A stretch of DNA of 64,000 nucleotides from contig CAWGVS010000005.1 of the NCBI GenBank assembly GCA_963826115.1, forward strand, positions 1,024,001-1,088,000. The letters are read 5' to 3'. Position numbers and translations under genes: made by a program. Under the pieces are notes generated by a model. The model was not told the origin of the DNA. It was given only the letters and a program-made list of their open reading frames with translations, and searched no databases. The stretch is from an uncultured Candidatus Rokubacteria bacterium (GTDB lineage: Bacteria > Methylomirabilota > Methylomirabilia > Rokubacteriales > DASRDR01). Below are positions 46,420 through 63,295 of the stretch, piece by piece. Every line of letters begins with the position of its first letter. The first letter of the stretch is position 1.

Positions 46420-48159
46420 TCAGCTCCGCTCGACCATGTAGAGGTGGGCCAGCATGTCGTTGTAGATGTTCCCCTCGATCACCTGCTCGCCCGCCTTGTT
46501 CTTCTCGATGCCCCGCACGGACGGCTTGGAGACCGCATAGCGCACGACCCAGGTGACCGGGACGTAGCCGCCGTCGCTCTGGAGGATCTCCTCGGCGCGG
46601 GCGTAGTTCTCGAGCCGCTTCTTCGTATCGCGCGTGTCACGGCCGGCCTCGAGCTCCTTGTCGAACGCCTCGTTCCCCCACGCCTGGCGCTTGCCCGTCG
46701 TCCGCTTCGAGTAGAACGTGTCGAAGTACTCGTTGTGGGGATCCGGGTAGTCCATGAACCAGCGGATCCAGACGAGCTGGAGATCCTGCTTCCAGAGCCG
46801 CTCCCGGAAGACGCGCTGCTCCAGCACCTCGAGCTCGGTCTTCATGTTGAGGTTTTCGAGAAGGATGGCCTGGACCGCCTCGGCCATGGGCTGGGACTGG
46901 AGCGCCTCCTGTCGCATCGACAGCACGATCTTCGGCCAGTTCTTCCCGCCCTCGTACGGCGTCCCCTTGAGCGCCGCCATCGCGAGCTTCGGGTCGAACC
47001 GCTGGACGTCGCGGATCTTCTTGTCCTCGAGATAGCCGGGAAAGCCCGGCGGAATCATGCAATGGGCGGGCAGCGCGAAGCCCTGGGCGACCTTGGCGAC
47101 GGACTCTCGATCCACCGCGTGCCCCAGCGCCTTCCGAACCTGCAAGTTGTCGAAGGGCGGCTTGGTGACCTGGGGGGTGAGGTACCACGTCCCCGGATAC
47201 GGGTAGCGGAACACCTCGCCGGCGGTCTTCGGATTGTCCCGGAAGCGCTTCAGGTCGGCGGCCTGAAGGATCGTGAGGTCGATCTCGTTGTTCTCGTAGG
47301 GCAGGACCCCGGCCGCGAACGGGATGATCGGGATGATCACCTTCTCGAGGGTGACCTCCTTGGCCCCGAAGAAGTGCGGGTTCTTCTTGAGGACCATGTG
47401 CTTGCCGTGCTCCCACGTCTCGAGGACGAACGGTCCGTTGGAGACGATGTTCCCCGGCTCGGTCCACTTGTCGCCGTGCTTCTCGATGGCGCCCTTATGA
47501 CCCGGGAACGCCGCCAGGTAGGCGGAGAGCACCGGGAAGTAGCCGCGCGGTCCCTCGAGCGTGACCTCGAGCGTCCAATCGTCCTTGGCCTTGACGCCGA
47601 CCTGCCCGGCATCGGTGACCTGCCCCTTGTTGAACGCCTCGCCGTTCTTGATGTCGTACAGGAACGCGGCGTAGGGTGCCTTCGTGGCCGGATCGAGCTG
47701 GCGCTTCCAGGAGTACTCGAAGTCGCGCGCGGTGCACGGGCTGTTGTCGGACCACTTGGAGTCCTTCCGGATCGAGAAGGTCCACATCGACCCGTCGCTG
47801 TTCGACGTGACCTTGCTCGCGACGGACGGCACCGCCTGGAAGTCCGCGTTGAACTTCATGAGCCCGGCCCAGAGGGACGAAACCCCGTTGCAGTACAGAT
47901 CCTTGTTGAAGTCGTGGCTCGAGGGATCCACCTGCGAGAACGCGAAACCGCCGCCTCCGTACCGGAACGTTTGCTCCTTGGCGAGCTTCTCGCCCGGCGC
48001 AAGCGTCGGTGCCGAGGACGCCGGCCTGGGATTGAAGCCGGCCGCCCCCATGGCGGCCAGCCCGGCGGCGATCCGGAGGAAACCGCGGCGATCGACGCCG
48101 GCGGCGCCCAGGCGCGCGGCCAGGAGATCCAGCTCTCGGTCGGGAACCGGTCGCCTCAT
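46420..48159 (-). CDS. oppA: Peptide ABC substrate-binding protein (OppA-like), Tat signal
   Basis: DRRGFL twin-arginine motif; WSDNSPCTARDFEYSWKR, SNGPF. Confidence 0.88.
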   Translation of the reverse strand: MRRPVPDRELDLLAARLGAAGVDRRGFLRIAAGLAAMGAAGFNPRPASSAPTLAPGEKLAKEQTFRYGGGGFAFSQVDPSSHDFNKDLYCNGVSSLWAGLMKFNADFQAVPSVASKVTSNSDGSMWTFSIRKDSKWSDNSPCTARDFEYSWKRQLDPATKAPYAAFLYDIKNGEAFNKGQVTDAGQVGVKAKDDWTLEVTLEGPRGYFPVLSAYLAAFPGHKGAIEKHGDKWTEPGNIVSNGPFVLETWEHGKHMVLKKNPHFFGAKEVTLEKVIIPIIPFAAGVLPYENNEIDLTILQAADLKRFRDNPKTAGEVFRYPYPGTWYLTPQVTKPPFDNLQVRKALGHAVDRESVAKVAQGFALPAHCMIPPGFPGYLEDKKIRDVQRFDPKLAMAALKGTPYEGGKNWPKIVLSMRQEALQSQPMAEAVQAILLENLNMKTELEVLEQRVFRERLWKQDLQLVWIRWFMDYPDPHNEYFDTFYSKRTTGKRQAWGNEAFDKELEAGRDTRDTKKRLENYARAEEILQSDGGYVPVTWVVRYAVSKPSVRGIEKNKAGEQVIEGNIYNDMLAHLYMVERS

Positions 48160-48316
48160 CAGGTGCCTCCTTTGTGGGAGCCAGCCCGCCTGGCACGCGC
48201 GGCGGGTGTCGGCTCGCGGTTATCCACGCCGAGGCCCGCGGCTCGCATGCCCGGGCCGGGCGGCGTCCCCCTGAACGTCCGGTTATCGGCGACCCGCCTC
48301 CCGCGAGGCGCCGCCG

Positions 48317-49249
48317 CTACTTCAGCTTGGGGTCCAGGGCGTCCCGGACCCCGTCACCCAGAAACGTGAACGACAGCATCGTGACGCCAATGGCGATGGA
48401 CGGGAACACGCAGAGGTGCCAGTACGTCCGGAGGTACTGCTGTCCCTCCCCCACCATCTGACCCCAGGACGGCGTCGGGGGATTGATACCCACGCCGATG
48501 AACGAAAGCGCGGCCTCCGTGAAGATCGCCTGGGGGATCCCGAACGTGATGGCGACGATGATCGGGGTGAGCGCGCTCGGAAGGATGTGACGCAGCAGCA
48601 CGCGACGGAACCCCCCGCCGAGGGCGCGGGCGCCCTCGACGAACTCCTTCTCCTTGATGGCAAGCACCTGGGCGCGCGTCTGCCGGGCGATGCCGACCCA
48701 CCCGGTGAGGCCGATCGCGATGAAGATGTTGACGAGGCCCGCGCCCAGCATGGACATGACGAGGATCACGAACAGCAGATTGGGAAAAGCGTACATGACG
48801 TCCACGAAGCGCATCAGCACGAGGTCCACGCGGCCCCCCAGGTAGCCGGACAGGGAGCCGATCGGCACGCCGATCAGCACGACGATCAGCTGGGCGCCCA
48901 ACCCGACCAGCATCGACACGCGAGCCCCATAGATGATCCGGGAGAGGAGGTCGCGTCCGACGTGATCGGTGCCGAGCGGGTAGTCGCGCGAGGGCCCTTC
49001 GTTCAGACGGGCGAAGTTCGTCTTCGTGTAGGGCAACGGGGCGAGGACGTCCGCCAGCAGCGCGACGAGGCACAAGATGAGGACGACGATTCCGCCCGCC
49101 ACCGCCAGCCGGTTGCGCAGGAGACGCCGGAAGGCGTCCCGCCAGAGGCTCGACGACTCGGCTCGCGCGAGGCCCGCGGCCCGCGCGGCGTCGAGGACCG
49201 CCCCGGTCCGAAGGCTACTGGTACCGGATGCGGGGGTCGAGAGTGCCAT
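48317..49249 (-). CDS. oppC: Peptide ABC permease (OppC-like)
   Basis: PLGTDHVGRDLLSR, EFVEGARALG, EAALSFIG, PSWG. Confidence 0.9.
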   Translation of the reverse strand: MALSTPASGTSSLRTGAVLDAARAAGLARAESSSLWRDAFRRLLRNRLAVAGGIVVLILCLVALLADVLAPLPYTKTNFARLNEGPSRDYPLGTDHVGRDLLSRIIYGARVSMLVGLGAQLIVVLIGVPIGSLSGYLGGRVDLVLMRFVDVMYAFPNLLFVILVMSMLGAGLVNIFIAIGLTGWVGIARQTRAQVLAIKEKEFVEGARALGGGFRRVLLRHILPSALTPIIVAITFGIPQAIFTEAALSFIGVGINPPTPSWGQMVGEGQQYLRTYWHLCVFPSIAIGVTMLSFTFLGDGVRDALDPKLK

Positions 49250-50145
49250 AGACGAGGTCGACGACGAGGTTCATCGTCGCGAGGAACGCGCCGTACACGA
49301 GAACGACGGCCATGATCATGGGATAGTCGCGGCCGGTCATCGAGAGCACGAAGAACTGTCCCATGCCTGGCACCCGGAAGATGGCCTCCACGAAGAACGA
49401 GCCGGTGCCGACGGCGGCGAACAAGGGGCCCAGGAGCGTCACGATCGGGATCAGCGCGTTCTTCAGAGCGTGCTTGAAGATCACCGGCGGCTCAGCGAGC
49501 CCCTTCGCGCGCGCGGTGAGCGTGAAATCCGACCGGATGACCTCGAGCATGCTGGCGCGCGTGTACCGGGCGACCAGGCCCATGGGGGCCAGCGACAGAG
49601 TGAGTGGTCGGCAGGACCCAGTTGCGGGGTGAGTCCCACCCCCCGGTCGGGAAGAGCGGGATGACGAACGAGAACATCACGATGGCGAAGACGGCCAGGA
49701 CGAAGTTCGGCACGGCCACGCCGAACGTCGCGACGCAGACCGACACGTAGTCCCAGGCCCGGTTCTGGTGCATGGCGGCCAGGATGCCGAGCGCCAGTCC
49801 TCCGACGACAGCCAGGACGAAGGCCATCGTGCCCAGCCAGAGCGAAACGGGGAACGTCTGGGCGATGATCTCGCTGACCGTTCGGGTCTTGTAGACAAAC
49901 GACTGGCCGAAGTCCCCTCGGGCGGCCTTGCCGACGAAGATGAGGAACTGCTGGTAGAGCGGCCGGTCGAGGCCGTAGGCCTTGGCGAGGTTTTTCTGGG
50001 CCTCGGGAGGCAGAGGATTTGCGCCTTCTGCCACGGGATCGAGCGGACTTCCTGGCGTCGCATGCATCACCAGGAAGGTCACGAGCGCCATGGCCAGGAG
50101 CGTCGGGGCCAGCCACAGGACGCGAGACGCCGCGTATTGGAGCAC
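49215..50145 (-). pseudogene. oppB: Peptide ABC permease (OppB-like), frameshifted near 49605
   Basis: YGLDRPL, GDFGQS, then CCG ACC A CTC ACT CTG; removing one base gives VLPTLTLSLAPMGLVARYTRASMLEV...ARAKGL. Confidence 0.85.
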
Positions 50146-50303
50146 CCGAATCCCCCCAGGGGTGCCCTACTATCGGGTGCGGTCCGGAGGGAGTCAAGAG
50201 GTCCGTCGCGTCGGCCACGGCCCCGGAGGTCCTCGACAGTCACGTGGCGCGCGCCTGGCGCGTCGGCGGGCGCCGTGGTAGGAGTGTCGCGAGAGGGATC
50301 TCG

Positions 50304-51125
50304 GTGAACGTCACGCTTCTCGGAACCGGATGCCCGCCGCCGAATCCGGCCCGTCGTGGCCCCGCGACCCTCGTTCGCGCCGGCGCGGAGACGCTCCTCG
50401 TGGATGCCGGATCCGGGGTGGCCGTGCAGCTGCTCCGCGCCGGGGTCCGGGCGAGCCAGCTCCAGCGTGTCCTGCTCACCCATTTGCACTCCGACCACGT
50501 CATCGACCTCGGCCATCTCGTGCTGACCCGCTGGATCGTCGGCGAGAACACGCCGCTCGAGGTGTTCGGCCCGGCCGGCACGGCCGCCCACGTGGAGCGG
50601 CTCCTCGCTCTCTGGGCCTGGGACGTCGAGGTCCGGCGCTCGCACATGCGCGAGCGCGAGCCGCCCCGCGTGCGCGTGACGGAGATCGAGGAGGGCCTGG
50701 TGTTCGAGCGGGACGGCGTGCGCGTCACCGCGTTCCTCGTGGAGCACGAGCCCGTGAAACCCGCGTTCGGGTTTCGCTTCGACGCGCCCGGCCGCCGCGT
50801 CGTGATCTCGGGGGACACGCGGCCCTCGGAGAACCTGATCCGGCACGCGCAGCAGGCGGACCTCCTGATCCACGAGTGCACCGACATGACCTTCGCGGCG
50901 TGGACGCCCGGGTGCGGCTGGCCGACGCGAGAGGCGAAGGTGCGCGACCTGCAGGCCTATCACACGGGACCGGACGAGGTCGGCGCGGTTGCAGCCGAGG
51001 CTCGCGCGCGCCATCTGGTGCTCACGCACCTGATGCCGGGCTCCGAGCCCGGTGACCTGATCGATCGAGCCCGCGCGCGCTTCGCCGGTCCGATCACGGT
51101 CGGCGAGGACCTCGCCGCGCTGTAG
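50304..51125 (+). CDS. MBL-fold hydrolase, RNase Z/AtsA-like
   Basis: LLGTGCP, LVDAG, THLHSDH, ISGDT, LIHE, LTHL. Confidence 0.88.
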   Translation: MNVTLLGTGCPPPNPARRGPATLVRAGAETLLVDAGSGVAVQLLRAGVRASQLQRVLLTHLHSDHVIDLGHLVLTRWIVGENTPLEVFGPAGTAAHVERLLALWAWDVEVRRSHMREREPPRVRVTEIEEGLVFERDGVRVTAFLVEHEPVKPAFGFRFDAPGRRVVISGDTRPSENLIRHAQQADLLIHECTDMTFAAWTPGCGWPTREAKVRDLQAYHTGPDEVGAVAAEARARHLVLTHLMPGSEPGDLIDRARARFAGPITVGEDLAAL

Positions 51126-51539
51126 GCGCGGAGGGCCTACGCCGAGCGCTCGCGGTTACGGCGCCTCCGGCCCCTCAGATGTCACGGCCAGCGCTTTGGG
51201 CCCCCCGCGCGCCCGGCCTCCGCCTCCTCGACAAAGACCCGCGCGTCCGCACGTAGGCCGTCCCAGCCACGTTTCTGTATCCCCTCCCCCGTCCCCCGCT
51301 CGCGGGCGCGCGGCATCGGCCGCGCACCCGAACAACAGCGCGGCGCAGCCGCGTCGGAGGGCGAGGGGGTCAGGACGTGAGGCCCGGAACCCGACCGACA
51401 GGTCCCGCGTGCAGAGTGCGTTCGATGAGCTAGGAGGCCGCCTAGCGTCCGACCCGTGCTTCCTGGTAGGGTCAGGCTGGCGTTCCCCTCGGAATGGCAG
51501 CCGCGTCCCACTGGCCTCAGTCGACGGAAGGATTCATCG

Positions 51540-52529
51540 ATGCTCGCCCGGCTCATGGCCGCGACCATCCTCGCCCTGGCCCTCCTCGCCGCGCCGCTCG
51601 CCGTTGCGGCACAGCCGGCGGGGAAAGGCCACCGGATCGGCTTTCTGGGCGTGGGCTCGCGCGAGGGCCGGGCGTTCTTGATTGACGGCTTTCTCCAGGG
51701 GCTGCGCGAGCACGGCTACGTCGAGGGCCGAAACATCTTCATCGAGTACCGCTTCTCCGAGGACCGCAACGATCGGCTGCCCGCGCTCGCGGCGGAACTG
51801 GTCGATCAGAAGGTGGAGCTCATCCTGGCGTCCGGTACCCCGGCGAGCTTTGCGGCCAGGCAGGCCACCCGTACGATTCCGATCGTCATGGGAAGCCTGG
51901 CCGCCAATCCGGTCGAGACCGGCCTCATCGTCAGCCTGGCGCGGCCCGGTGGCAACATCACCGGGATGACGCAGATGGCCGCGCAGCTCGGCGGGAAGCG
52001 GCTGGAGCTGCTCAAGGAGACCGTGCCGGGTCTGTCGCGCGTGGCTGTCTTCTGGAATCCCGACAACCCCGCCTACGGGCCCATCCTGAAAGAGCTCGAG
52101 GCGGCGGCCCCCGTGCTGGGGGTGGAGCTTCGCCGCGTGGAGGTGCGAGTTCCCGAGGATTTCGAGGCCGCCTTTCAGGGCGCGACCAGGCAGCGTGCCG
52201 GGGCGCTGATCGTCCCCAGCGACCCCCTGGTCACCAACCGGCCCCGCACGGTCGCGGACCTGGCGCTCAGATATCGACTGCCAACGATGTTCGAGAACAA
52301 GGAGTTCACGGAAGTCGGGGGCCTCCTGTCTCTCGGGGTTGACCTCGTCGACTCGTACCGGCGCGCCGCGAGCCATGTGGACAAGATCCTGAAGGGGGCC
52401 AAGCCCGGCGACCTGCCGATGGAGCAGCCCACGAAGTTCGACCTGTTCGTCAACCTGAAGACAGCCAAGGCCCTCGGCCTCACGATCCCGCCGTCGGTGC
52501 TCGCGCGGGCGGACGAGATACTTAAGTGA
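51540..52529 (+). CDS. Orphan ABC substrate-binding protein (ABC_sub_bind family), copy 1
   Basis: GLREHGYVEG, SLARPGGNITG, KRLELLKE, P.DLP.EQPTKF..VNLKTAKALGLTIP. Confidence 0.9.
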   Translation: MLARLMAATILALALLAAPLAVAAQPAGKGHRIGFLGVGSREGRAFLIDGFLQGLREHGYVEGRNIFIEYRFSEDRNDRLPALAAELVDQKVELILASGTPASFAARQATRTIPIVMGSLAANPVETGLIVSLARPGGNITGMTQMAAQLGGKRLELLKETVPGLSRVAVFWNPDNPAYGPILKELEAAAPVLGVELRRVEVRVPEDFEAAFQGATRQRAGALIVPSDPLVTNRPRTVADLALRYRLPTMFENKEFTEVGGLLSLGVDLVDSYRRAASHVDKILKGAKPGDLPMEQPTKFDLFVNLKTAKALGLTIPPSVLARADEILK

Positions 52530-53509
52530 TGGACCGGCGAGCCTTCGTTGCTGGCACCCTGACCCTCCTCGCCGCGCCGCTCGCCACGGAGGCGCAGCCG
52601 GCGGGTAAGGTCTTCCGGATCGGCGTGCTCAGCCCGGGCTTGGCCCAAGGCTCGTTGGTCGAGATGGCGGCCCTCCGGACCGGGCTCGGCGAGGTCGGGT
52701 ACGTCGAGGGCCAGAACATCCGCATCGACTGGCAATTTGCCGAGGGCAGCCCTCAGCGGCTGAACGAGCTCGCGGCCGAGCTCGTCCGTCTCAAGCCTGA
52801 CGTGATCTTCACGATCAACACCCCCGCCGCGGCGGCCGCCAAGAGCGCGACCAGCACGATGCCCATCGTCTTCGTGAGAGTCAGCGATCCCATCGGGGCG
52901 GGGCTGGTCCCGAGCCTGGCGCGGCCGGGAGGGAACGTGACGGGCCTGGCTTCGTTCGTGGCCGAGATGGGCCCGAAACGCCTGGAGCTTCTCAAGCAGG
53001 CCATTCCGCGCCTCTCCCGGGTCGCTGTGCTCTGGAATGCTCCGAGCAAGGGCGCGCAGCTGGTATTCACGGAGCTCAAGGCGGCGGGTCCCCGCCTCGG
53101 CGTGCAGATCCAAGACGCGGGCGTGCGAGACCCGAATGAGCTGGCGGGCGTCTTCGGCGCCGCGGCCGAGGCACGGGCCAGTGCCCTGGTCGTGATCGAT
53201 GACCTGGTGATCGATTCATACCGGACCGAGATCCTGGCCCTGGCCGCGAAGCACCGGCTCGGGGTGGCCTCCATATATCGGGAGTACACGAACGCGGGGG
53301 GTCTCATGGCCTACGGTCCCAGCCTGTCGGATACGTATCGGCGCGCCGCGACCTACGTCGACAGGATTCTCCGCGGCGCCAGGCCGGCCGATCTTCCAGT
53401 CCAGCAACCCGCAAAGTTTGACTTCGTGATCAACCTCAAGACCGCCAAGACCCTCGGCCTGACGATCCCGCCCTCACTGCTCGCGCGGGCGGATGAGGTC
53501 ATTCAGTGA
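52529..53509 (+). CDS. Orphan ABC substrate-binding protein, copy 2
   Basis: TGATG overlap; MDRRAF Tat-like start; same family motifs; ends IPPSLLARADEVIQ. Confidence 0.9.
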   Translation: MDRRAFVAGTLTLLAAPLATEAQPAGKVFRIGVLSPGLAQGSLVEMAALRTGLGEVGYVEGQNIRIDWQFAEGSPQRLNELAAELVRLKPDVIFTINTPAAAAAKSATSTMPIVFVRVSDPIGAGLVPSLARPGGNVTGLASFVAEMGPKRLELLKQAIPRLSRVAVLWNAPSKGAQLVFTELKAAGPRLGVQIQDAGVRDPNELAGVFGAAAEARASALVVIDDLVIDSYRTEILALAAKHRLGVASIYREYTNAGGLMAYGPSLSDTYRRAATYVDRILRGARPADLPVQQPAKFDFVINLKTAKTLGLTIPPSLLARADEVIQ

Positions 53510-53578
53510 CCAGCAGGGCGCGCTTCTTGCTGGGGCGATCCCATCGCAGCCAGTCTCGCCTGAGTAAGGCATTGTCTC

Positions 53579-54481
53579 GTGGAGCCTGATCGGGCGAGCT
53601 GGACCGCGAGATTGGCCGCCTACGCGCGCGCATATCACTACGCCCACGACTCACGCCGGGTATTCGAGGACTTCCTGGCGGGCGCGCTCATCACGCGAGA
53701 AGACCGGGAGACCATGGACACACAGTGGGCACCCGCGGCGGCCGACTCTCAGCCGAGACGGCCGGGCGGCGCCCACATGCTCGGCAGAGCGCGCTACAAC
53801 GAGGACAAACTCTTCGGCGCGATCGACAAAGGCATCTCACAGTACGTCATCGTCGGCGCTGGCATGGACACCTTCGCGCTACGGCGGCCCGACCTCCAGG
53901 AGCGTCTCCGGATCTTCGAGCTCGATCACCCCGCGACGCAGGCGTTGAAGCGGGACCGGCTGTCTCAGGCCGCCCTGGCTCTACCACCCCACCTCCACTT
54001 CTGCCCGACTGATTTCGAGCGCGAGAGCGTCGGATCCTCACTGTCCCGATCGCCATTCGACCCCGGGGTTCCGACGTTCTTCTCATGGCTGGGCGTCACG
54101 TACTACCTGACGCGCGAGGCGATTCGCAACACGCTCACGTCGATCTCGACCGTGGCAGCGCCGAACAGTGAACTCGTCATGGACTACGCGGATGCGGCCG
54201 CGCTTCTTCCAGACAATCAGTCTCCCCAGATCCGGGACCTCTTCTTGCGACTCCAGAGCGTGGGCGAGCCCCTGATATCCGGTTTCCACCCGTGCACACT
54301 GACTGAAGAGCTCGCAGCGCTCGGGTTCGACCTCTTGGAGGATTTGGACGCCAAGGTGCAAGAAGCACGCTACTTTGCGGGTCGAGTCGATGGGTTCCGT
54401 CCGGTTGAGTTCGCTCACTTGGCGCATGCACGTCGGATCCCGCCTCCGATGCTGGCGCGGGCGGATGAGGTGATCCAGTAG
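53579..54481 (+). CDS. SAM-dependent methyltransferase (LCM/TIGR00027-like) with SBP-derived C-terminal tail
   Basis: QYVIVGAGMDT, FELDHPATQ, WLGVTYYL; ends IPPPMLARADEVIQ. Confidence 0.85.
   Translation: MEPDRASWTARLAAYARAYHYAHDSRRVFEDFLAGALITREDRETMDTQWAPAAADSQPRRPGGAHMLGRARYNEDKLFGAIDKGISQYVIVGAGMDTFALRRPDLQERLRIFELDHPATQALKRDRLSQAALALPPHLHFCPTDFERESVGSSLSRSPFDPGVPTFFSWLGVTYYLTREAIRNTLTSISTVAAPNSELVMDYADAAALLPDNQSPQIRDLFLRLQSVGEPLISGFHPCTLTEELAALGFDLLEDLDAKVQEARYFAGRVDGFRPVEFAHLAHARRIPPPMLARADEVIQ
54436..54481 (+). repeat. Copy of the SBP 3'-terminal sequence at the end of the methyltransferase
   Basis: GATCCCGCCTCCGATGCTGGCGCGGGCGGATGAGGTGATCCAGTAG versus GATCCCGCCCTCACTGCTCGCGCGGGCGGATGAGGTCATTCAGTGA (53464-53509); related copies end SBP1 and SBP3. 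Confidence 0.85.
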
Positions 54482-55474
54482 GTGGACCGGCGCGCCTTCC
54501 TCGCCGGCTCCCTGGGCGCCCTCGCCGCGCCGGTCGCCGCGGGGGCGCAGCAGGCAGACCGCATTTGGCGGGTCGGCCTCCTCATTCCGTTCGCCGAGAG
54601 CGACGCGGAAGCGCAGACCCAGGTTGCAGCGTTCCTGGGGGCCCTGCGGACACTTGGTTGGGACGAAGGTCGAAATGTGCGCATCGATTATCGTTGGGCT
54701 GCGCGGGATACCACTCGTATTCGGGCATCTGCGAAGGAGCTGGTGGAGCTTCGGCCCGACGTGATTCTCGCCCGCACCACCCCAGTGACCGCCGCACTCC
54801 AAAGAGAGACCAGCACCATCCCGATAGTCTTCGTTGTCGTCTCTGATCCCGTTGGCGACGGCCTCGTCGCGACTGTCGCGCGTCCTGGTGGCAACATCAC
54901 GGGATTCACCAATGTGGATGCTTCGCTAGGCGGCAAATGGCTGCAGTTGCTCAAGGAGATCGCACCTCGCATCAAGAAGATCGCGTTCCTTTTCGATCCC
55001 AGGATGGCCCCCGGTGGGGGAGTGTATTACCGTCGTCTGATCGAGGACGCTGCTCCATCCATCGGGGTACAGGCGATCGAGACCGCGGTGCATGACGCCG
55101 CGGATATCAAGCGCGCCATCGAGGGGTTCGTGCGGGAACCGAACGGTGGTCTTGTTGTGCTACCCGATGTGACGACCATTAATCACCGCAGGACGACGAT
55201 TTCGCTGGCGGCCAACCATCGCCTGCCGGCCATCTATCCGACCGACTACTTCACGAAGGATGGCGGTCTAATATCCTACGGAGCCGACTATCTGGACTTG
55301 TATAGAAAGTCAGCGTCATATGTGGATCGCATCCTTCGCGGTGCGAAGCCGATTGACCTTCCAGTGCAGGGACCGATCAAGTTCCAGTTAACCGTCAACC
55401 TGAAGACCGCCAAAGCGCTCGGCCTCACGATCCCGCCCGCGGTGCTCGCACGGGCAGATGAAGTGATTCAGTGA
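54482..55474 (+). CDS. Orphan ABC substrate-binding protein, copy 3
   Basis: MDRRAFL start directly after TAG; ARPGGNITG; ends IPPAVLARADEVIQ; interior visibly more AT-rich. Confidence 0.9.
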   Translation: MDRRAFLAGSLGALAAPVAAGAQQADRIWRVGLLIPFAESDAEAQTQVAAFLGALRTLGWDEGRNVRIDYRWAARDTTRIRASAKELVELRPDVILARTTPVTAALQRETSTIPIVFVVVSDPVGDGLVATVARPGGNITGFTNVDASLGGKWLQLLKEIAPRIKKIAFLFDPRMAPGGGVYYRRLIEDAAPSIGVQAIETAVHDAADIKRAIEGFVREPNGGLVVLPDVTTINHRRTTISLAANHRLPAIYPTDYFTKDGGLISYGADYLDLYRKSASYVDRILRGAKPIDLPVQGPIKFQLTVNLKTAKALGLTIPPAVLARADEVIQ

Positions 55475-55561
55475 CGCGCCCACGCACGCGACCGGAAAGG
55501 GCCGGCAGCGCCCCTTGACGCCCCCGCCCCGACCCCAAGGGGGGGGCGGCCTCTCCTGGGT

Positions 55562-55798
55562 GTCCTGACTGCAGCCGGCGTCCGCTACCGGGAGCCCGAG
55601 CGACTCCGGCACACGTTCGCCAGCACGATGCTGTCGCGTAATGCCCCGCTGCTCTACGTGCAGAAGCAGGGTGGCTGGCGAAGCGCGGCCGTGCTCCTGC
55701 GCGTCTACAGCCGCTGGCTCCCCCCGGATATCGACGGGGGGTCGATGCAACCGTCCGCAACCCCCGCGCAACCGGCCGTGGTCGCGCCGCGGAAGTAG
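55562..55798 (+). pseudogene. C-terminal remnant of a tyrosine recombinase/integrase
   Basis: VLTAAGVRYREPERLRHTFASTMLSRNAPLLYVQKQGGWRSAAVLLRVYSRWLP (box II with catalytic Tyr); no N-terminal domain; not in ORF track. Confidence 0.82.
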
Positions 55799-55810
55799 CG
55801 GGAATCTATG

Positions 55811-55842
55811 ACCCGCCGAGCAGCGGGCGAAACTTCCAGAAG
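55811..55842. repeat. Left attachment-site repeat (duplicate of the 3' end of gene 61877-63295)
   Basis: ACCCGCCGAGCAGCGGGCGAAACTTCCAGAAG, 28/32 identical to 61879-61910; minus strand reads FWKFRPLLGGS*. Confidence 0.85.
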
Positions 55843-56059
55843 CACTTGGCCCCCACGCGCGTGCTCGAAAATCCGGCACGTTACAAGACAGCGGCCCGAA
55901 ATCTATCCCCTGGCAACATAACCACACGCGGCCTCGACCTGCGTACGTCACGACTTGCGCGACACCACCGTGAGCTCCCATTAACGCCGGGTCAGCTGGA
56001 CGCATTCCAGCGGCCCGGCGACAGGTCTCCCAGTACCACCGTGCTATCCTAGCGACACA

Positions 56060-56293
56060 ATGACCTCATCAGCTGAACACACCAATCTGCCTGAAGTGAT
56101 CTTCCTCGTCGAGGAAGCCCCCGAGGGCGGTTTCACCGCACGGGCCCTGGGAGAATCAATCTTCACCGAGGCCAACGACATGGAAGACCTCCATGCGAAG
56201 GTCCGAGACGCGGTTCACTGTCACTTCGACGAGGGCAAGACTCCGAAGGTCATCCGGCTCCATTTCGTCCGTGAGGAAGTCATCAAGGCTTGA
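56060..56293 (+). CDS. HicB-like antitoxin (short form)
   Basis: EVIFLVEEAPEGGFTARALGESIFTEA...VRDAVHCHF; TGCTATCCT extended -10 just upstream; coupled to hicA. Confidence 0.75.
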   Translation: MTSSAEHTNLPEVIFLVEEAPEGGFTARALGESIFTEANDMEDLHAKVRDAVHCHFDEGKTPKVIRLHFVREEVIKA

Positions 56294-56535
56294 GGCTGCC
56301 GCGGGACGTCTCTGGGGAGGATCTCGCGAAGGCACTCGGTGATCTCGGCTACCGGATCACTCGCCAATCCGGTAGCCATCTCAGACTGACCACGCTCGAA
56401 CGCGGCGAGCACCACGTCACCATCCCTCGCCACGCTGCGCTCCGGGTTGGGACACTGTCCGGTCTCCTCGGCGACGTGGCCCAGCATTTCGCCCTGAGCC
56501 GAGAGGAGCTGATCGAGCGGTTGTTTGGGCGATAG
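56290..56535 (+). CDS. hicA: HicA family toxin (mRNA interferase)
   Basis: LPRDVSG, LGYRITRQSGSHLRL, VTIPRH, LRVGTL; TTGA overlap. Confidence 0.88.
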   Translation: MRLPRDVSGEDLAKALGDLGYRITRQSGSHLRLTTLERGEHHVTIPRHAALRVGTLSGLLGDVAQHFALSREELIERLFGR

Positions 56536-56580
56536 ACGACCAGGAGCGAGGTCGGCTGAAGTCCCGACACTGCGCATTCG

Positions 56581-59500
56581 TCAGCCACGCTCCGTCAGCG
56601 CCGCCTCCGCCTGCGCCAGCCAGAAGCCCATCTCCATCTCTCGATACATATTCGTGGCCGCGGTCAGGTGCTCGTGGGCCTTCGGACGATCACCGGTGCG
56701 GCGATAGAGTTTGCCGAGGCCGAGGTGGCAGTGGGCGACGAGGGGGCGCATGCCGCGCGGCTCGGCGAGCTCCAGCGCCCGGCGGTAGTGGGCCTCGCCG
56801 CTGTCGGCGTCCAACCGGTCGGGATGGGTCGCGATGTCGCCGAGCAGGTGCCGCGCGTCAGCCGCGAACCCGTGCTGCCCCGGAGAGGATTCGACCGCGC
56901 GGTCGGCCAGGCGCTGCGCTTCGTCGAGCCGGCCGAGCAGCAGACCGGCGCGACCCAGCGAGTGGTAGTCCCAACTGCGATAGGCGATGAACCCCCTTGC
57001 CGCCTGACGTTCGAGAAGCCGCTCGCCCTCCCGGAGCCGGTCCAGCGCCTCACTCGCTTCGCCAAGCTGCGCCAATGCCCAGGCGGAGGAGGCGACCGCG
57101 GTGGGAAGCTGAAAGACGACGTTTCGCGGCCGCACCACCGCAATCCACTGCTCGATCAGTGTCCGCGCGTTCGGCCAGTCGCCCTTGAGGAGGCGAAGCG
57201 TGCCCGCGGCGAGGTGGGCCCAGCCGACGGTGTGCGCGTGCTGTGTCGGCTCGGCAAGCCGGATCGCGTCGGCTTCATACGTGGCCGCCTCGATGAACCG
57301 GCCAAGTTGGGCGAGGCTCATGGCCAGGTAGGAGCGGTCGAGGACCGATGGCGGGACGGCCAGGCCGAAATACTCGGAGGCCAAGTCGGCCGGCAGCGCC
57401 GCGAGGTTGCCCGTCGCCAGCTCGACCACTCGCTCGTACTCGCCCCGGTAGTAATGCCCTTCAACGAGACAGCTCGTGGCGAGAATTCGGAGCCTCACAT
57501 CCCCGAGACGCCCGGCGATCGCCAGCGCGCGAGTGCCGGTCACGAGCGCGTCGTCCAATTCGCCGAGATCGTTCAGGGCCATCGTCACGAACGCGCCGGC
57601 GCGGCCTCGCCGGCGGTCATCGTTCAACCGTTCGGCGAGGGCCTCGGCTTCGCGCAAGCGGTCCCGCACTCGCTGGACTTCACCGAGTTGGTTCAGCACT
57701 GGCCGCAGTTCGAGGCGGATCTCGAAGCTCTGCTCCAGCATGGACGGGCTCTCCGGCAGCGCCTCGAGGACCCCCAGCGCCTGCTCGAACCAGACCCGAG
57801 CATCCGAGAGCGCCGATCGCGCGGCCGCCTTGAGCCCGGCCTGCCGGGTATAGTCCACCGCCTTCTCCCGCAACTCACCCCGGACCGCGTGATGAGCGAG
57901 CCGCTCGATCTCTGCGCCAAGGCGGTCTTGGTGGAGCGTCTCGATTGCTTCGACGATCCGCGCGTGCAGCTCGCGGCGCCGCTCCTGCAGCAAGCCGCCG
58001 TACGCGACCTCGTGCGTGAGCGCGTGCCGGAACGTGTACTCGAGATCCGGGAACAGCCGCGTCTCGTAGAGGAATTCGGTCGCCTGAAGCTGGGCGAGCC
58101 CCTGGCGGAGACGGTCCTCGGGCTCGTCGGCCACAGCCTGGAGCAGCGAGAAGGGAACGTCGGTGCCGATCACCGCGGCCGCCTGCAGCAGTCGTTTGTC
58201 CTCCGGGTCCAGTCGGTCGATCCGGGCCGCCAGCATCGCCTGGGCCGTGGCCGGGACCCGGAGGCCTTGGACGATCCGGGTCACGCGATATGCTCCACGC
58301 TCCCCCGCCAGGACTCCCGTCTCGACCAGCGATCGAACGCTCTCCTCCACGAAGAACGGGTTGCCCTCGGTCCGCTCGATCACGAGCCGCTTGAGCGGGG
58401 CGAGCGCGGTGTCGTTCCCGAGCAGGGCGTCGAGCAAGGCCTCGGCGCTCTCGGGCGCCAGGGGATTGATCTGGAGCTGCCGGTAGTAGGTCTTGCTCCC
58501 CCAGCCGTGGCGGTACTCCGGGCGGTAGTTTACGAGGAGGAGCAGCCTGGCCGTGGGCAGGCTCTCCACCAGGCTGTCCAAGAAGGCCTGAGTCTCGGCG
58601 TCGATCCAGTGCAAGTCCTCGAACAGGACCACGAGCGGCTGCACCTGGCTCTCGCGCAGGAGCAGACGCTTGACGCCGTCAAGGATACGCTGGCGGCGCT
58701 GGGGCGGATCGAGGCGTGCCCAGTGCTCGTCCTCGATCGGGACGTCAAGCAGCCACAGAATCGGGAAGACGCAGGGCTCAAGCTGCCGGTCGAGAGAGAG
58801 GAGCCTGCCCGTCACCTTCTCGCCGATCTTGCGGGCATCGTCGGTGCTCTCGATCTGGAAGTACGCTCGGAGCAGCTCGATGAGGGGCAGGTAGTTCGTC
58901 GCCTTGCCGTAGGAGACGGAGCCGGACTCGAGGATCAGCCAGCCCTCGGCGCGATCGGAGTGACTGAACTCCCAAAAGAGCCGGGACTTCCCGACACCGG
59001 GCTCCCCCACGAGGGCCACCACCTGTCCGTGACCGGCTCGCGCGCGCTCGAGCGCCTGGCGGAGCTGATCCAGCTCGCTCTCTCGGCCCACGAATTGGGC
59101 CAGGCCGCGGACGGCCGCGGCCTGGAAGCGCGAGCGGACCGTGGCGGCCCGGGTCAGTTCGTAGACCTCGAGCAACATCTCCAGCCCCTTGACCCGCACC
59201 GGGCCGAGCGATTTGACCTCGACGTAGCCTTCGGCCAGCGCCAGCGTCTCGGGCGTGATCACGATCGCGCCGGGGTCGGCGAGCTGCTCCATCCGCGCGG
59301 CCAGGTGCGTCGTCTGGCCGACGGCGGTGTAGTCCATACGGAGATCGCTGCCTATGGCGCGGACGACGACCTCGCCTGAGTTCAGCCCGACGCGGATCTT
59401 GACGACGGCCGCATGAGAGCGCCGCACCTCGTCCGCGTACGTCTTCACGCGCTCCTGCATCCTGAGTGCCGCGTAGCATGCCCGCACCGCATGGTCCTCG

Positions 59501-59949
59501 TGGGCCAGCGGCGCACCGAACAGCGCCATGATCCCGTCGCCCATCACCTGGTTGACGGTGCCCTCGTAGCGGTGGACGGCCTCCATCATCCGCTCGAGCA
59601 CGGGATCCAGGAGCTTCCGTGCCTCCTCGGGGTCGCGGTCGGCGAGCAATTCCATCGAGCCCTTTAGATCGCCGAAGAGCACCGTCACCTGCTTCCGCTC
59701 GCCTTCGAGGGCACTCTTCGAGGTGAGGATCTTCTCGGCGAGGTGCTTCGGGGTGTAGGCCCCTGGTGAGCTGAAACGTGGCTGCGTCGAGGCCAGCTCG
59801 GCCAGCGGATGGGCGCACTCGGAGCAGAACTTCGCGGTCGGGGACGCCTGGGCGCCGCAATTCGCGCAGGTTCGGGCGAGAGGAGCGGCACATTCCTCGC
59901 AGAACTTCGCCTGCGGGCGATTCTCATGCTGGCACCGGGAGCATTTCAT
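56581..59949 (-). CDS. Double zinc ribbon/class III adenylate-guanylate cyclase/AAA (STAND)/TPR protein
   Basis: CxxC repeats, FGDLKGS, MGDG, HLAARME, GEPGVGKS, FEDLHWID, GNPFF, helical repeat C-terminus. Confidence 0.92.
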   Translation of the reverse strand: MKCSRCQHENRPQAKFCEECAAPLARTCANCGAQASPTAKFCSECAHPLAELASTQPRFSSPGAYTPKHLAEKILTSKSALEGERKQVTVLFGDLKGSMELLADRDPEEARKLLDPVLERMMEAVHRYEGTVNQVMGDGIMALFGAPLAHEDHAVRACYAALRMQERVKTYADEVRRSHAAVVKIRVGLNSGEVVVRAIGSDLRMDYTAVGQTTHLAARMEQLADPGAIVITPETLALAEGYVEVKSLGPVRVKGLEMLLEVYELTRAATVRSRFQAAAVRGLAQFVGRESELDQLRQALERARAGHGQVVALVGEPGVGKSRLFWEFSHSDRAEGWLILESGSVSYGKATNYLPLIELLRAYFQIESTDDARKIGEKVTGRLLSLDRQLEPCVFPILWLLDVPIEDEHWARLDPPQRRQRILDGVKRLLLRESQVQPLVVLFEDLHWIDAETQAFLDSLVESLPTARLLLLVNYRPEYRHGWGSKTYYRQLQINPLAPESAEALLDALLGNDTALAPLKRLVIERTEGNPFFVEESVRSLVETGVLAGERGAYRVTRIVQGLRVPATAQAMLAARIDRLDPEDKRLLQAAAVIGTDVPFSLLQAVADEPEDRLRQGLAQLQATEFLYETRLFPDLEYTFRHALTHEVAYGGLLQERRRELHARIVEAIETLHQDRLGAEIERLAHHAVRGELREKAVDYTRQAGLKAAARSALSDARVWFEQALGVLEALPESPSMLEQSFEIRLELRPVLNQLGEVQRVRDRLREAEALAERLNDDRRRGRAGAFVTMALNDLGELDDALVTGTRALAIAGRLGDVRLRILATSCLVEGHYYRGEYERVVELATGNLAALPADLASEYFGLAVPPSVLDRSYLAMSLAQLGRFIEAATYEADAIRLAEPTQHAHTVGWAHLAAGTLRLLKGDWPNARTLIEQWIAVVRPRNVVFQLPTAVASSAWALAQLGEASEALDRLREGERLLERQAARGFIAYRSWDYHSLGRAGLLLGRLDEAQRLADRAVESSPGQHGFAADARHLLGDIATHPDRLDADSGEAHYRRALELAEPRGMRPLVAHCHLGLGKLYRRTGDRPKAHEHLTAATNMYREMEMGFWLAQAEAALTERG

Positions 59950-60930
59950 GGGCCGGAGCTCCTCGACCGGGCAGCACTGCAAGCAGCAGAAGGCGGGGCT
60001 CCCGCTCCTTGCGGCAGGAGCTGATGACTGGAGCCAGAGAAGAACGCGGGAAGTCTGCAGCGCAAGATTAAGGAAGAGGGCCGTGTGCGAGCTAAGTCCC
60101 CGAATCCAGAAACGACCGAACGGCCCTCGCATGCATTCGTTGCCCAGTGCCTATCCAAGCCTGAGGGCCGTCGGAGGGCTGTAGTCGAAGAAGACGCCCC
60201 CGCACATCTCCTATGGCCAGGCGCCCAAACCTGTTGGCGGTCTCGACGGGCCAGGGGCAGTATCCGCGCGCATCGGATTCGACCAGGGTCTGCAGTGGCT
60301 ACGATGTTTCGGCGGGCCGACGGCAGAAGTATGGCCAGTCCGGAAGGTGGAACCTCGGCGAAAGAGACTTGATGCGACGCACGGCAAGATAAAGGCCGGG
60401 GCCTGATCCGCCTCAAGTCCGCGAATCTATGCACCATCGGAAGGCCCCGAAGCCGTTCGAGGGCGCGCCCTGTTTCGAGTGTCGGGGCCGCTCGGGGGCC
60501 GCGCTCACGGCCTAGAATCGCGTGGCGCCGAATGGCTCCATCGGCCTCGCTCGTGTGCTGCGACCTCCGCACTGCCCACACCATCGAGCCATAGCCGACC
60601 CTGTCGGCACAGGCTCTTGGCCGATGTCGCGAGAGGGTCTCGCCGAACCGCTTCACTTTGCGTCGCACCGCTGCACCTTGCCGCAGTCCGGCACCCCACC
60701 GAGGATCGTATCGACGGCGCGCTCCCCTCGCCAATCGCCGACTTGGCGCGAGGTTCGGGCACTCGCGACCGCCAAACCCACAACCTAGCATGCCTATTGG
60801 TAGCACGACCCGTACCGATATGAGTTCCGACCTGATCGCGTCCCCGGTGCCCCAGATCTCCCTTGCCTCGCGGCGGCGGCTTCGCTACCGTGCGAGGCAG
60901 CGTGGGGCTGGGCCGCGTCGGGGACATCCC

Positions 60931-61848
60931 ATGACGCTTGGACTCCCGGTCCTGTGGAGGAGGTACCTGTCCGAGTTGCGAATCGACCGAGCCGTGGCGG
61001 ACAGGACGCGCCGTGCCTACGAGACGGGCTGGAACTCCTTCGTGGCCACCTCGCGGTCGATGGGCTGGCGTCTCCGGGACGCCGGCGACATCAGCTACGA
61101 GCGGCTCCTGGAGTGGCAGCTCACCCTGAAGGAGGTGGGGAAGCAGGACTGGACCTGCCGGACGTACCTCATGGCCCTCAAGGGCTTCACCCGGTGGCTC
61201 AATACCAACGGGCACCTCGTCACCGACCCGGGCGCCCGGTTCCGCACCCCTCGGCTCAAGCGCACGATTCCGATCCTCCCTGCGTTCCACGACCTCGCCA
61301 CCCAGCTCGCCAGCGAACCGAGCCTCCGGAACCGCGCCATCCTCGCGATCGCGCTTTACGGGGGCCTTCGTGCCGCCGAGATCGCGGGGCTCCGTCGCGC
61401 CCACTTCGTGCCGGACCAGGGGCTCATCGGGTTCGTGGGCAAAGGCCAACGTCAGCGCTCGGTGGCACTTCCGCCCCAGGCGCTCGAGATCATCCAGATG
61501 TACCTGGCCACCAGCACAACGATCCATAACGGCGCCAATCGGAACGGCCACACCGTCCCTGCCGACTCGCCGCTCCTCCGCAAGGAGGACGGGAGCGGCG
61601 CCGGGCTCAGCTACCTCGTCATCAACCGCGTCATGACCCGCTGGACGCGGCGGCATCTCGGCGTCCGCCTCACCCCGCACAAGCTCCGCCACGCCTACGG
61701 CAAGCACTGCGTCGACCGCGGCGTCGACATCCGGATCATCGCCGAGGCGCTCGGTCACGAGTCGCTCGAATCGACCAAGATCTACACCCAGGTGTCCTTC
61801 GAGCGCACCCGCCGCATCGCCGAGTTATTTGCCCTCCCGGGGAGCTAA
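60931..61848 (+). CDS. Tyrosine recombinase/integrase (XerC/D-like), catalytically intact
   Basis: GGLRAAE (R), GKG (K), HKLRH, LGHES, TKIYT; start may be upstream (60820). Confidence 0.92.
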   Translation: MTLGLPVLWRRYLSELRIDRAVADRTRRAYETGWNSFVATSRSMGWRLRDAGDISYERLLEWQLTLKEVGKQDWTCRTYLMALKGFTRWLNTNGHLVTDPGARFRTPRLKRTIPILPAFHDLATQLASEPSLRNRAILAIALYGGLRAAEIAGLRRAHFVPDQGLIGFVGKGQRQRSVALPPQALEIIQMYLATSTTIHNGANRNGHTVPADSPLLRKEDGSGAGLSYLVINRVMTRWTRRHLGVRLTPHKLRHAYGKHCVDRGVDIRIIAEALGHESLESTKIYTQVSFERTRRIAELFALPGS

Positions 61849-61876
61849 ATAACCCGGTGCGAAATCGTCAACGAAA

Positions 61877-63295
61877 TCACCCGCCTAGCAAAGGGCGGAA
61901 CTTCCAGAAGTAGTTCGCGAGGCCGCCGCCCTCGTGGAAGCGGCGGAACGTGAGCTCGACCGGGACGTCGAACGTCACCGAGTCGGGGTCGGCGTCCGTC
62001 AGCTGGGTGTAGAAGCGGCCCCCGCCCTCGAGGTCCGCGGCCACCATGACCGTCGGCGGATCGGGCGACGGCACCAGGTGATCCTTGGTGAACGTGAAGA
62101 CGCGGCCGCGCCGGGAGAGCCGGTGCTCCACGAGCTCCTTGCCGGAGCAGCGCCAGCACACGCGCCGGCGGGGATACTGGATGGCCCCGCACGCCACGCA
62201 GCGCTGGCCGTAGAGGCGGAGGTCCTGGCGCTCCTCGCGCTCCATCACCGGGAGGCTCGTGAACGCCCGGATGGGATCGGTCTCGACCAACCGGCGGAAC
62301 TGGAGATACTTCCCGTAGTGCCGGAGCGGCCGCCCGGCGGCCACCTGGGCGGCGACGCCGCGGCTCCGGTCGAGGCGACGAACGGCGTCCGTCGCCTCGA
62401 AGAGGAGCGCGTCGGCGCCGGCGCCGTAGCCCACCACGAGGATCCGGTCGCCCGGCTCCGCCTCCTCGAGACACGCGGCGAGCGCCAGGATCGCCGCCGC
62501 CACGCCGGTGTTCCCGACGCGCGAGAGGAGCGAAACCCTCGGGAGCGCATCCTCGCCCAGGCCGATGCTGCGCAGGATCGGTCCGGCCAGGCGCGGGTCC
62601 GGCGCGTACACGGCCGCGCGGCGGATCTCGCGCGCCCCCACCCCGGTGTCGGCGAACAGGCGCCGCGCCGCCTCCGCCATCTGCCGCTCGTAGCCGTAGG
62701 CACGGACGAACGTGGGATCGCCCTGCTCGGGGAAGCGCGCGCCGGCAAGCCGCCAGACGTCGGAAAACTCGTGAGTGTGGGCGGCCGCGCCAACGAACCG
62801 CGCGAGTACGCCCGGCCCGGTCCCGAGCCGCACCGCAGCGGCCGCATCCCCCCAGACCGTCTCGAGCTCGCTGCCGGGGGGCGCCAGACGCATGTCGGCC
62901 GCGGCAACCATTGCCTCGCGCGCCGAGCCCGCGCGGACCGCGTCGAGGCCCAGCCGGAGTCCGGTCGTGCCGGCGCGGAGACTGCCCCCCAGGTCGGCGA
63001 CGGCGACGGAGGGCCCGCAGTCGAGCACGCTGGCGAGCACGGCGGCCGCCGATTTCTCCGCGTAGGGCGACGTCGTGCTGGCGAGCGCGACGAAGTCGAG
63101 GTGAGCGGCGCCCGCGGGCCCGAGCGCGGCGAGGCCCGCTTCCACGGCCATCGTGAGGCTGTCCTCGTCGTGGTTCGCGACCGCCCGCTCGCCCTGGCCC
63201 GGCCCGCCCCAGGCGCCGCCGAGGGTCTCGCCCGACAGCCGGTACCGCGGAACGTGCACCCCGATCCCGGTGATGCCGATCGGCGGGGCGCTCAC
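61877..63295 (-). CDS. HMG-CoA synthase/KAS III-like domain fused to DUF35 zinc-ribbon/OB-fold domain
   Basis: GVHVPRYRL, ERAVANHDEDSLTMAVEA, GDAAAA, VGNTG, GYGAGAD; CVAC...CWRC, VELTFRR...NYFWK. Confidence 0.88.
   Translation of the reverse strand: MSAPPIGITGIGVHVPRYRLSGETLGGAWGGPGQGERAVANHDEDSLTMAVEAGLAALGPAGAAHLDFVALASTTSPYAEKSAAAVLASVLDCGPSVAVADLGGSLRAGTTGLRLGLDAVRAGSAREAMVAAADMRLAPPGSELETVWGDAAAAVRLGTGPGVLARFVGAAAHTHEFSDVWRLAGARFPEQGDPTFVRAYGYERQMAEAARRLFADTGVGAREIRRAAVYAPDPRLAGPILRSIGLGEDALPRVSLLSRVGNTGVAAAILALAACLEEAEPGDRILVVGYGAGADALLFEATDAVRRLDRSRGVAAQVAAGRPLRHYGKYLQFRRLVETDPIRAFTSLPVMEREERQDLRLYGQRCVACGAIQYPRRRVCWRCSGKELVEHRLSRRGRVFTFTKDHLVPSPDPPTVMVAADLEGGGRFYTQLTDADPDSVTFDVPVELTFRRFHEGGGLANYFWKFRPLLGG
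61879..61910. repeat. Right attachment-site repeat forming the present 3' end of gene 61877-63295
   Basis: ACCCGCCTAGCAAAGGGCGGAACTTCCAGAAG; minus strand FWKFRPLLGG* with host-atypical codons CCT TTG CTA. Confidence 0.85.

Follow-up and report, generated by a model that had tools for sequence, protein, structure and literature searches.

How can a metabolic gene keep an intact reading frame when a tyrosine recombinase gene stops 28 bp from its 3' end and a second copy of its last codons lies 6 kb away? This question is raised by a 64,000-nt stretch of DNA (hereafter the window, whose positions serve as coordinates throughout) from the metagenome-assembled genome (MAG) of an uncultured Candidatus Rokubacteria soil bacterium (G000; 6,244,856 bp). 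The original prediction held that a minimal integrative element, bounded by attL and attR sites, had entered the gene and supplied its last codons. We conclude that an HMG-CoA-synthase-like/DUF35 gene very probably harbours in its 3' end, at positions 55843..61910 (6,068 bp), a site-specific integrative island of 6.07 kb, inserted at a hotspot that had been used before.

Direct repeats and the target gene's 3' end

The target gene (61877..63295, minus strand) is an intact open reading frame (ORF) of 472 aa, whose product comprises an HMG-CoA-synthase-like condensing enzyme, a ChsH2/DUF35 zinc ribbon and an OB fold (Pfam ACP_syn_III_C, zf-ChsH2 and OB_ChsH2_C (DUF35)). HMG-CoA synthase models score this protein at 184.5 bits, which is sub-threshold against their cut-off of 244, and HMG-CoA-synthase-like/DUF35 fusion is a fair label for the gene.

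Sequence reading, a repeat search and a genome-wide word count all confirmed the pair of repeats on which the original prediction was built. The 32-nt segments at 55811-55842 and 61879-61910 are direct repeats identical at 28 of 32 positions, and they have in common the exact 12-mer AACTTCCAGAAG (55831-55842 and 61899-61910), below called the core. The repeat search lengthened the pair to 43 nt (55808-55850 and 61876-61918) with 81% identity and a spacing of 6068. On the minus strand, the left copy reads TTC TGG AAG TTT CGC CCG CTG CTC GGC GGG followed by TCA TAG, and the right copy reads TTC TGG AAG TTC CGC CCT TTG CTA GGC GGG followed by TGA. FWKFRPLLGG is encoded by both, and all four differences are synonymous, as had been claimed. 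The 17-mer GGCGRAACTTCCAGAAG has two exact matches in the window (0.00 expected from 100 shuffles), which are also its only exact copies in the genome. With up to two mismatches there are six genome-wide matches, the four extra ones not exceeding the reversed-pattern control, which gave 11; the repeat is thus not a dispersed one.

We designate the left repeat (55808..55850) attL and the right repeat (61876..61918) attR. The left part of attL is a displaced pseudo-end of the target gene (FWKFRPLLGGS*, 55807-55842, minus strand), and the left arm of the element begins to the right of its identity block; the coordinates 55843-61910 for the element place the crossover at the right edge of that 12-mer block. 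As predicted, the right copy is the working gene end, closing the 472-aa ORF. Its last seven codons and stop (FRPLLGG*, 61877-61898, minus strand, within attR) derive from the element side of the crossover and leave the ORF intact. The unusual codon choice that had been remarked on here is also real: in the gene body, CCT accounts for 0 of 27 Pro codons, TTG for 1 of 46 and CTA for 0 of 46 Leu codons, and the GC content at third codon positions is 0.94. The dyad GAACT-N9-AGTTC, reported along with the repeats, is indeed present at 61898-61916; it was seen by reading, amounts to 5+5 bp, is missing from the attB-like site of the relative G008 described below, and carries no weight. No tRNA was found in the window and no RNA family in an Rfam scan of 42000-64000, so the site is not of the tRNA type.

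The last codons supplied by the element and the stop of the target gene coincide in part with a terminator-like hairpin (61899-61880, minus strand; TCCGCC-CTTTGCTA-GGCGGG followed by TGATTTCGTT). A scan of the element yielded two terminator-like sites against 2.5 expected, which is not significant, and a promoter scan of the element yielded no promoter-like site.

The integrase and its association with the target gene

The gene intA (60931..61848, plus strand) encodes an intact 305-aa simple Xer-like tyrosine integrase made up of a core-binding and a catalytic domain (PF02899 and PF00589; Phage_integrase at 1.4e-22, plus Phage_int_SAM_1), with no extra N-terminal domain. It ends 28 bp before the gene stop at 61877, in agreement with the original prediction, and 50 bp from the identity block. 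By reading, we take LRAAE, GKGQRQR, HKLRHAY and LGHES..KIY to be its catalytic motifs. The best NCBIfam models are XerC (150.5 bits, cut-off 335) and XerD (130.7, cut-off 329.6), and scores so far under the equivalog cut-offs suggest that intA is not the XerC/XerD chromosome-dimer resolvase. At other places, the genome has three genes with stronger PF00589 matches.

Among 183 genomes searched within the order, 18 have an intA match at E ≤ 1e-25. Close relatives, defined by at least 55% identity, occur in eight (G000, G015, G093, G127, G019, G011, G003 and G097). The core is found within ~60 nt of the int stop in all eight, and the target gene directly adjoins it in six. Eleven intA-like loci at 28-36% identity have no such neighbour. 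In addition, intA relatives were collected from 30 metagenome loci, seven of which stop short of the int 3' end, leaving 23 assessable. The core abuts the int stop in 20 of these: 15 loci (L106-L115, L118-L120, L122 and L123) run from int through the core into the target gene, one (L124) runs into sequence resembling the element's left arm, and four (L130-L133) run from an internally deleted int through the core into other DNA. The remaining three (L125, L126 and L128) have no core. Since several metagenome loci are near-duplicates from different samples, these counts overstate independence. The predicted occurrence of integrase homologues beside the same gene is nevertheless borne out by both collections. 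Between genomes, int is better conserved than the adjoining host gene (nucleotide identities of 93.0 vs 81.8% in G011, 83.4 vs 76.6% in G015 and 88.5 vs 77.9% in G003), which would fit either a moving element or an int gene under tighter constraint.

Some individual loci have features of their own. At L132 (2342-8193), an intA remnant and core are followed by 5.85 kb without integrase, a second core and the target gene; the DNA between the cores consists of scrambled metabolic fragments (an ABC_sub_bind/AMP-binding chimera, a zinc dehydrogenase and DUF3943). Contig C20 of G019 (G019:C20; L048, 970-12800) carries an array with two cores and hicBA, in which intA is present once in disrupted form and once more as a remnant, and cyclase/STAND genes at least three times as copies or fragments; this array has no target gene beside it, and a binding-protein gene comes after its last core. 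In G014, the target gene is without its last ~45 codons, and three consecutive ORFs within the related insertion there (L045, 13735-16427) read like tyrosine recombinases, only one of which matched intA, at 29%; we take this set to resemble the recombinase-in-trio arrangement.

Orthologues of the target gene were identified in 44 of 61 genomes searched, a tally that includes G000 and takes in the unpublished G055. Of 21 gene ends examined in relatives, 20 preserve the 11-mer AACTTCCAGAA without change, and one (L026) departs from it with AAG CTG. Beyond FWKFRP, the tails vary among orthologues (LLGG, LLGSPPATNA, LLGPA, MR, RC, VLGG, GL, AL, VLGAG, VL, A, AV, LIA and others). As these residues are unconserved, the 'repair' keeps a loosely constrained tail. 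Element-borne tails track the host clade, with FRP[LV]LGG* in family f1 and FRPA* in family f2. Contigs end 31-330 nt from the target stop in G017:C447, G023:C249, G058:C13, G054:C12, G020:C361 and G011:C81, as one would anticipate for a hotspot whose variability and repeats interrupt assembly.

Empty site and recombined junctions in relatives

By blastn, window segments 55665-55851 and 61883-63287 match contiguous stretches of a locus in the same-genus relative G008 (L042, 18429-18626 and 18590-19994). The overlap of the two matches is a single repeat copy, at which both flanks are joined; an empty site for the element, with an older intB scar, thus exists within the genus. No integrase was found within 1.4-1.5 kb of the gene end in G002, G005, G018 and six others. 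The opposite junction is present in G019:C20, where the intA end, the core and hicB/hicA follow one another. In a five-way alignment, attL combines the left half of the G008 site with the right half found at the G019:C20 junction, attR being the converse, which is the pattern of an attB x attP exchange. Moreover, an A/G difference just left of the 12-mer and a C/T difference just right of it each follow the parent flank. The differences place the exchange inside AACTTCCAGAAG. We further infer that intA catalysed the event and that the element may still be able to excise.

Junctions of attP type (int end, core, left arm) were found in the chromosomal tandem array of G019:C20, in the 1,515-nt contig L124 and in a contig of run X1. 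The last of these comes from four public runs, all of them available as assembled (Logan) contigs, none of which contained half of the sampled words; such contig assemblies lose rare forms. The X1 contig (592 nt, depth 5.9) aligns to 61602-61910, continues with nine other letters and resumes at 55850. Over the 309 aligned bases, nine mismatches set it apart from the window, and window-identical X1 contigs occur at similar depth, so that it may represent a circle, a tandem copy or a second strain. A junction of about 61910 with 55843 had been predicted for a circular form; the junction itself is there, while circle and tandem copy are not separated by it.

At the G019:C20 junction (L048, 9932-9988), the core region is followed, 25 nt further right, by an imperfect inverted copy of itself (16 nt, 75% complementary), and a weaker version was seen by eye in the left arm of the window element at 55863-55880. 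This inverted copy could be an accessory binding site or chance, and nothing is claimed for it.

An earlier integrase at the same site

The original prediction overlooked a remnant of a second tyrosine integrase, intB, of which the C-terminal ~82 aa remain (55550..55798, plus strand; PF00589 1.3e-05). Its translation reads LRHTFAS...GGWRS...LLRVYSRW, hardly aligns with intA (28% over 36 residues, E 0.06) and ends 12 bp from attL. The remnant is the scar that a previous insertion left at this site. Since it abuts the left repeat, this repeat is not a pristine displaced gene end, as had been assumed, and is instead the end installed earlier by an integrase of a different type. With the site used before, the locus is best described as a tandem array at a lineage-wide island hotspot.

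Proteins like intB were found in 54 of the 183 genomes, mostly elsewhere than at the target gene, in a tally that takes in the unpublished G038, G064 and G055. Among 29 fetched loci outside G000, the target gene adjoins the intB-like gene in four (G158, G176, G113 and G166), and intB remnants lie at the gene end in G008, G017 and G019:C19. A full type-B element of 8,993 bp is present in G158 (L136, cores at 4057 and 13050), whose intact integrase has 393 aa with Phage_integrase, Phage_int_SAM_3 and Phage_int_M domains. In G113 (L137, cores at 530 and 6921), a 6,391-bp element stands behind another type-B end, again in tandem. G008 carries a 1.3-kb type-B scar between two cores with the same 12-mer. 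The 21 orthologue ends with a readable C-terminus are divided into six with type-A (intA-type) integrases or remnants, three with type-B remnants, nine with neither over 1.4-1.5 kb and three with less than 150 nt of flank.

Proposed mechanism and alternative explanations

In the mechanism that we propose, an earlier intB-type element would have used the site first, leaving its remnant against the former gene end. Subsequently, intA would recombine attP with attB at the 12-bp block AACTTCCAGAAG, corresponding to the minus-strand codons F-W-K-F, ten codons before the gene stop. The attP site would bear a look-alike of the gene's last codons, so that the attR junction would recreate an intact ORF (FWKFRPLLGG*), and the former end would be displaced 6 kb into attL. 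A HicA toxin gene, a HicB-like partner ORF and one member of a cyclase/STAND-ATPase/TPR family would be the cargo delivered. None of the following was observed: a lack of association between integrase and gene, unbroken synteny without an empty site, or a dispersed genome-wide repeat.

Several findings weigh against integration as a working, mobile island. The site in G008 is scarred by intB and is empty only with respect to the 6.07-kb element, and the target gene there is split over two frames. Two of the eight genomes with close intA relatives are without an adjacent intact target, one (G127) having a short target-like stretch and the other (G019:C20) the tandem junction. The X1 contig and L124 cannot separate a circle from a tandem copy, and no joint skipping 55843-61910 was seen among the 15 of 77 joints displayed from the four runs of assembled contigs. 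The left junction of G014 is 92% identical over 98 nt, which could mean an old and vertically inherited insertion. Finally, no excisionase (Xis), relaxase, replication or transfer gene was found in the element, ~1 kb of which has no supported gene, and it may be stranded.

Some of these findings would be explained if the island had arrived by site-specific integration and were now a fixed, decaying remnant with neither excision nor transfer. Besides the ~1 kb of unassigned DNA, the lack of any recognised Xis, relaxase, oriT-linked or transfer gene, the left junction retained in G014 and the lack of an empty-site joint among those displayed, int remnants are common at the site (type A in G003, G016, G097 and L130-L133; type B in G000, G008, G017 and G019), which makes decay in place the usual fate. 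On the other hand, intA is full length with its catalytic motifs, the two copies of the 12-bp core do not differ, conservation between genomes is higher for int than for the host gene, and attP-type junctions exist; we therefore regard a grounded island as possible, if on the unlikely side. The attP-type junctions might in turn derive solely from tandem chromosomal copies, the family spreading by tandem accretion and homologous recombination and not by regular excision. The array of G019:C20 (int - core - hicBA - cyclase' - int' - core, plus further cyclase copies), the tandem arrangement of G113 (L137) and of the window itself, and the coexistence in X1 of window-identical and ~3% divergent contigs at similar depth all agree with this explanation. 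Such arrays, however, normally result when site-specific integration recurs at a site that has been reconstituted, and the pattern of the five-way alignment needs an attP at some time, so that we consider it unlikely.

It is highly improbable that the repeats are no att sites at all and arose by local duplication of the gene end, as a gene-conversion tract of it or as the target-site duplication of a transposon, and that the recombinase merely happens to lie next to them. Duplication can yield short imperfect repeats, and the intA protein resembles housekeeping Xer proteins; however, the same core abuts the int stop throughout the close genomes (8/8) and in nearly all assessable metagenome loci (20/23), and the halves of attL and attR segregate as in attB x attP. 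The 12-bp block is also identical at independent insertions, in contrast to a target-site duplication, the XerC and XerD scores are far below their cut-offs, and the genome has its three stronger PF00589 genes elsewhere. Site-specific integration thus remains the explanation that we favour.

Cargo of the element

The GC content of the element is 62-70%, versus 74-78% in the target gene and beyond, and the term 'minimal' used in the original prediction is fair as regards size. A conserved left arm (55843..55900; GCACTTGGCCCCCACGCGCGTGC...GCACGTTAC...) opens the element, and related sequence follows the core in G014 (L045), G019:C20 (L048), L051 and L124. It is followed by a 77-aa ORF (56060..56293, plus strand), HicB-like by position only, whose stop overlaps the start of a HicA toxin gene (56290..56535, plus strand; PF07927 HicA_toxin, 2.5e-09). 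The 77-aa ORF has no match in Pfam (even at E ≤ 5), NCBIfam, PADLOC or PDB sequences and hits no HicB model; an 82%-identical copy accompanies hicA in G019:C20. The largest gene (56581..59949, minus strand) encodes a 1,122-aa protein with a double zinc ribbon, a class III nucleotidyl cyclase domain, an AAA_16 (STAND-type) ATPase and TPRs (Pfam DZR, Guanylate_cyc, AAA_16 and TPR_12). It belongs to a large expanded family, as judged from 31 paralogue matches in its own genome at E ≤ 1e-20. Between this gene and intA, ~1 kb (59950..60930) is without a supported gene or RNA, and conservation in relatives is limited to the final ~70 bp, upstream of int.

The four genes and small ORFs of the element gave no relaxase, type IV secretion, excisionase, replication or transfer gene in Pfam, NCBIfam and PADLOC. 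No relaxase or type IV secretion match places it among integrative and conjugative or integrative and mobilizable elements, no phage structural, replication or packaging gene in Pfam among prophages or phage satellites, and no intA relative was found among the viral contigs of IMG/VR. A PADLOC scan returned generic PycC cyclase-domain matches only (best 1.7e-23) and assigned no defence system; since these matches hit the generic cyclase domain, a defence role of the cyclase/STAND/TPR protein is only a guess. No cyclic-nucleotide-binding effector gene, as in Pycsar, adjoins the cyclase gene within the element.

The cargo varies between family members. In G015 (L046, 1-6565), HsdM, HsdS, an Mrr-type nuclease and the N-terminus of HsdR (a type I restriction-modification system plus Mrr) take the place of cyclase and HicA, and G019:C20 has hicBA and several cyclase copies. 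The cyclase paralogues elsewhere in the host genome (L103-L105) have no adjoining hicAB and no att homology. One of them (G000:C12:629404-634089, L103; 54% identical) lies ~1.1 kb from a tyrosine recombinase fragment that is distantly intB-like (37-44%).

The wider locus

The lower-GC DNA extends well beyond the element. In the same-genus relative G002, window positions 32757-42483 are syntenic, after which only ~1.2 kb remain to the gene end, and in G003 the homologue of window position ~38143 lies ~1 kb from an intA remnant located at the end of the gene. The window thus has about 19.4 kb more than these relatives (42.5-61.9 kb), with a GC content of 58-69% over most of it versus 72-78% in the flanks. 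The ~13 kb at ~42500-55800, absent at this place from G002 and G003 and mostly of lower GC, may be an older island. It includes what looks like a split cyclase/AAA_16 plus TPR copy (42885-46218, minus strand), in which a zinc-ribbon/cyclase/AAA_16 ORF (44890-46218) stands directly upstream of a TPR ORF (42885-44870). This copy shows 72% DNA similarity in patches to the large gene of the element and sits where the G002 synteny stops. An SBP_bac_5/OppC-type peptide ABC transporter, a metallo-beta-lactamase-fold gene and four tandem PF04392 binding-protein paralogues (51456-55474) are also present, with the intB remnant last.

No third repeat, by which an older island could have been delimited, was found at the left synteny break (~42.4-42.9 kb): with at most one mismatch, AACTTCCAGAAG has one further match in the whole window, at 8050-8061, which is unrelated, and short-word blastn of the attL region against 41500-43200 gave chance words only. 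As no left-hand repeat was found, a single old island is an interpretation. At 42600-42860 (plus strand), the window resembles by eye what we take to be the N-terminal part of a family-2 glycosyltransferase, cut at the synteny break.

Relation to known systems and implications

Integration into gene ends with reconstitution of the gene has long been known, and this mechanism is not new. Phage 21 occupies icd of Escherichia coli in the same arrangement as e14. The e14 element is inserted in the 3' end of this protein gene and supplies a near-synonymous replacement end, according to the available part of PMC6379469. Like e14 as described there, the element analyzed here has a tyrosine integrase, lies in the 3' end of a metabolic gene, keeps the ORF and leaves a pseudo-end at its far side. 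In contrast, e14 is prophage-derived and proteobacterial, with a duplicated end of 163 bp in that account versus ~32-43 bp here (PMC6379469), the target gene is another one, and the integrase here is a short Xer-like enzyme.

More generally, the accessible text of PMC12884075 states that island integrases commonly reconstitute their target genes and that many attB sites lie in protein-coding genes. Examples are SGI1-type islands at trmE's 3' end, for which tandem integration is known, and dusA-targeting islands (PMC8409611, PMC6531882 and PMC2297512, in the parts available). Such islands, small to medium in size, likewise have their own tyrosine integrase and target a conserved position close to where a housekeeping protein gene ends. 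Unlike the present element, in which no mobilisation gene is recognisable and for which no helper is known, they carry mobilisation functions and Xis and receive help from IncA/C plasmids. Relaxase-less 'iOriT' islands, as outlined in the available part of a preprint (bioRxiv 10.64898/2026.01.13.699239), are also att-delimited, with an integrase, without relaxase or mating-pair genes and, as in relatives of our element, with defence cargo; no oriT was identified here, unlike in those islands, and the comparison is an analogy only.

With regard to the enzyme, simple recombinases without an arm-binding domain occur on some mobile elements, such as the IntBrujita and IntKX subgroups (Smyshlyaev et al. 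2021, PMC8138268, in its available sections), and the same sections argue that the arm-binding domain is essential for mobility functions. Like these subgroups, intA has a SAM-like core-binding and a catalytic domain only, finds its best-scoring models among those for Xer and lacks a neighbouring Xis. Those sections place Xer-related tyrosine recombinases of candidate phyla among housekeeping types, whereas intA is island-borne. No paper naming this gene as a target was found among those searched, although supplementary tables of island databases (TIGER, Islander and Integrase-On-Demand) could list it. The target gene, the host phylum and the use of one site by two integrase lineages appear to be new, at least to us.

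The integrase/att pair is very small (a 305-aa recombinase and a 12-bp identity block), cleanly delimited and from an uncultured soil phylum. With natural attB-like and attP-like sequences at hand in relatives, a plasmid assay is straightforward. The element provides a further example of a mobile element served by a simple Xer-like recombinase, and if this enzyme alone drives both integration and excision, it would speak against the view that recombinases of mobile elements cannot do without an arm-binding domain.

Tentatively, the 11-12 bp coding for FWKF may be the island hotspot of Rokubacteriales and play the part that tRNA genes take elsewhere, a possibility that we put forward without relying on it. 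Two unrelated recombinase lineages, the 305-aa Xer-like enzyme lacking an arm-binding domain and Xis and the ~393-aa phage-type integrase, would have converged on this site, both rebuilding the gene tail. The resulting tandem arrays would ferry defence-type cargo, namely type I restriction-modification systems, a HicA toxin-antitoxin module and possibly cyclase-STAND-TPR proteins. A conserved protein-gene hotspot of this kind, at which assemblies often break, could help locate islands and their cargo in Rokubacteria MAGs.

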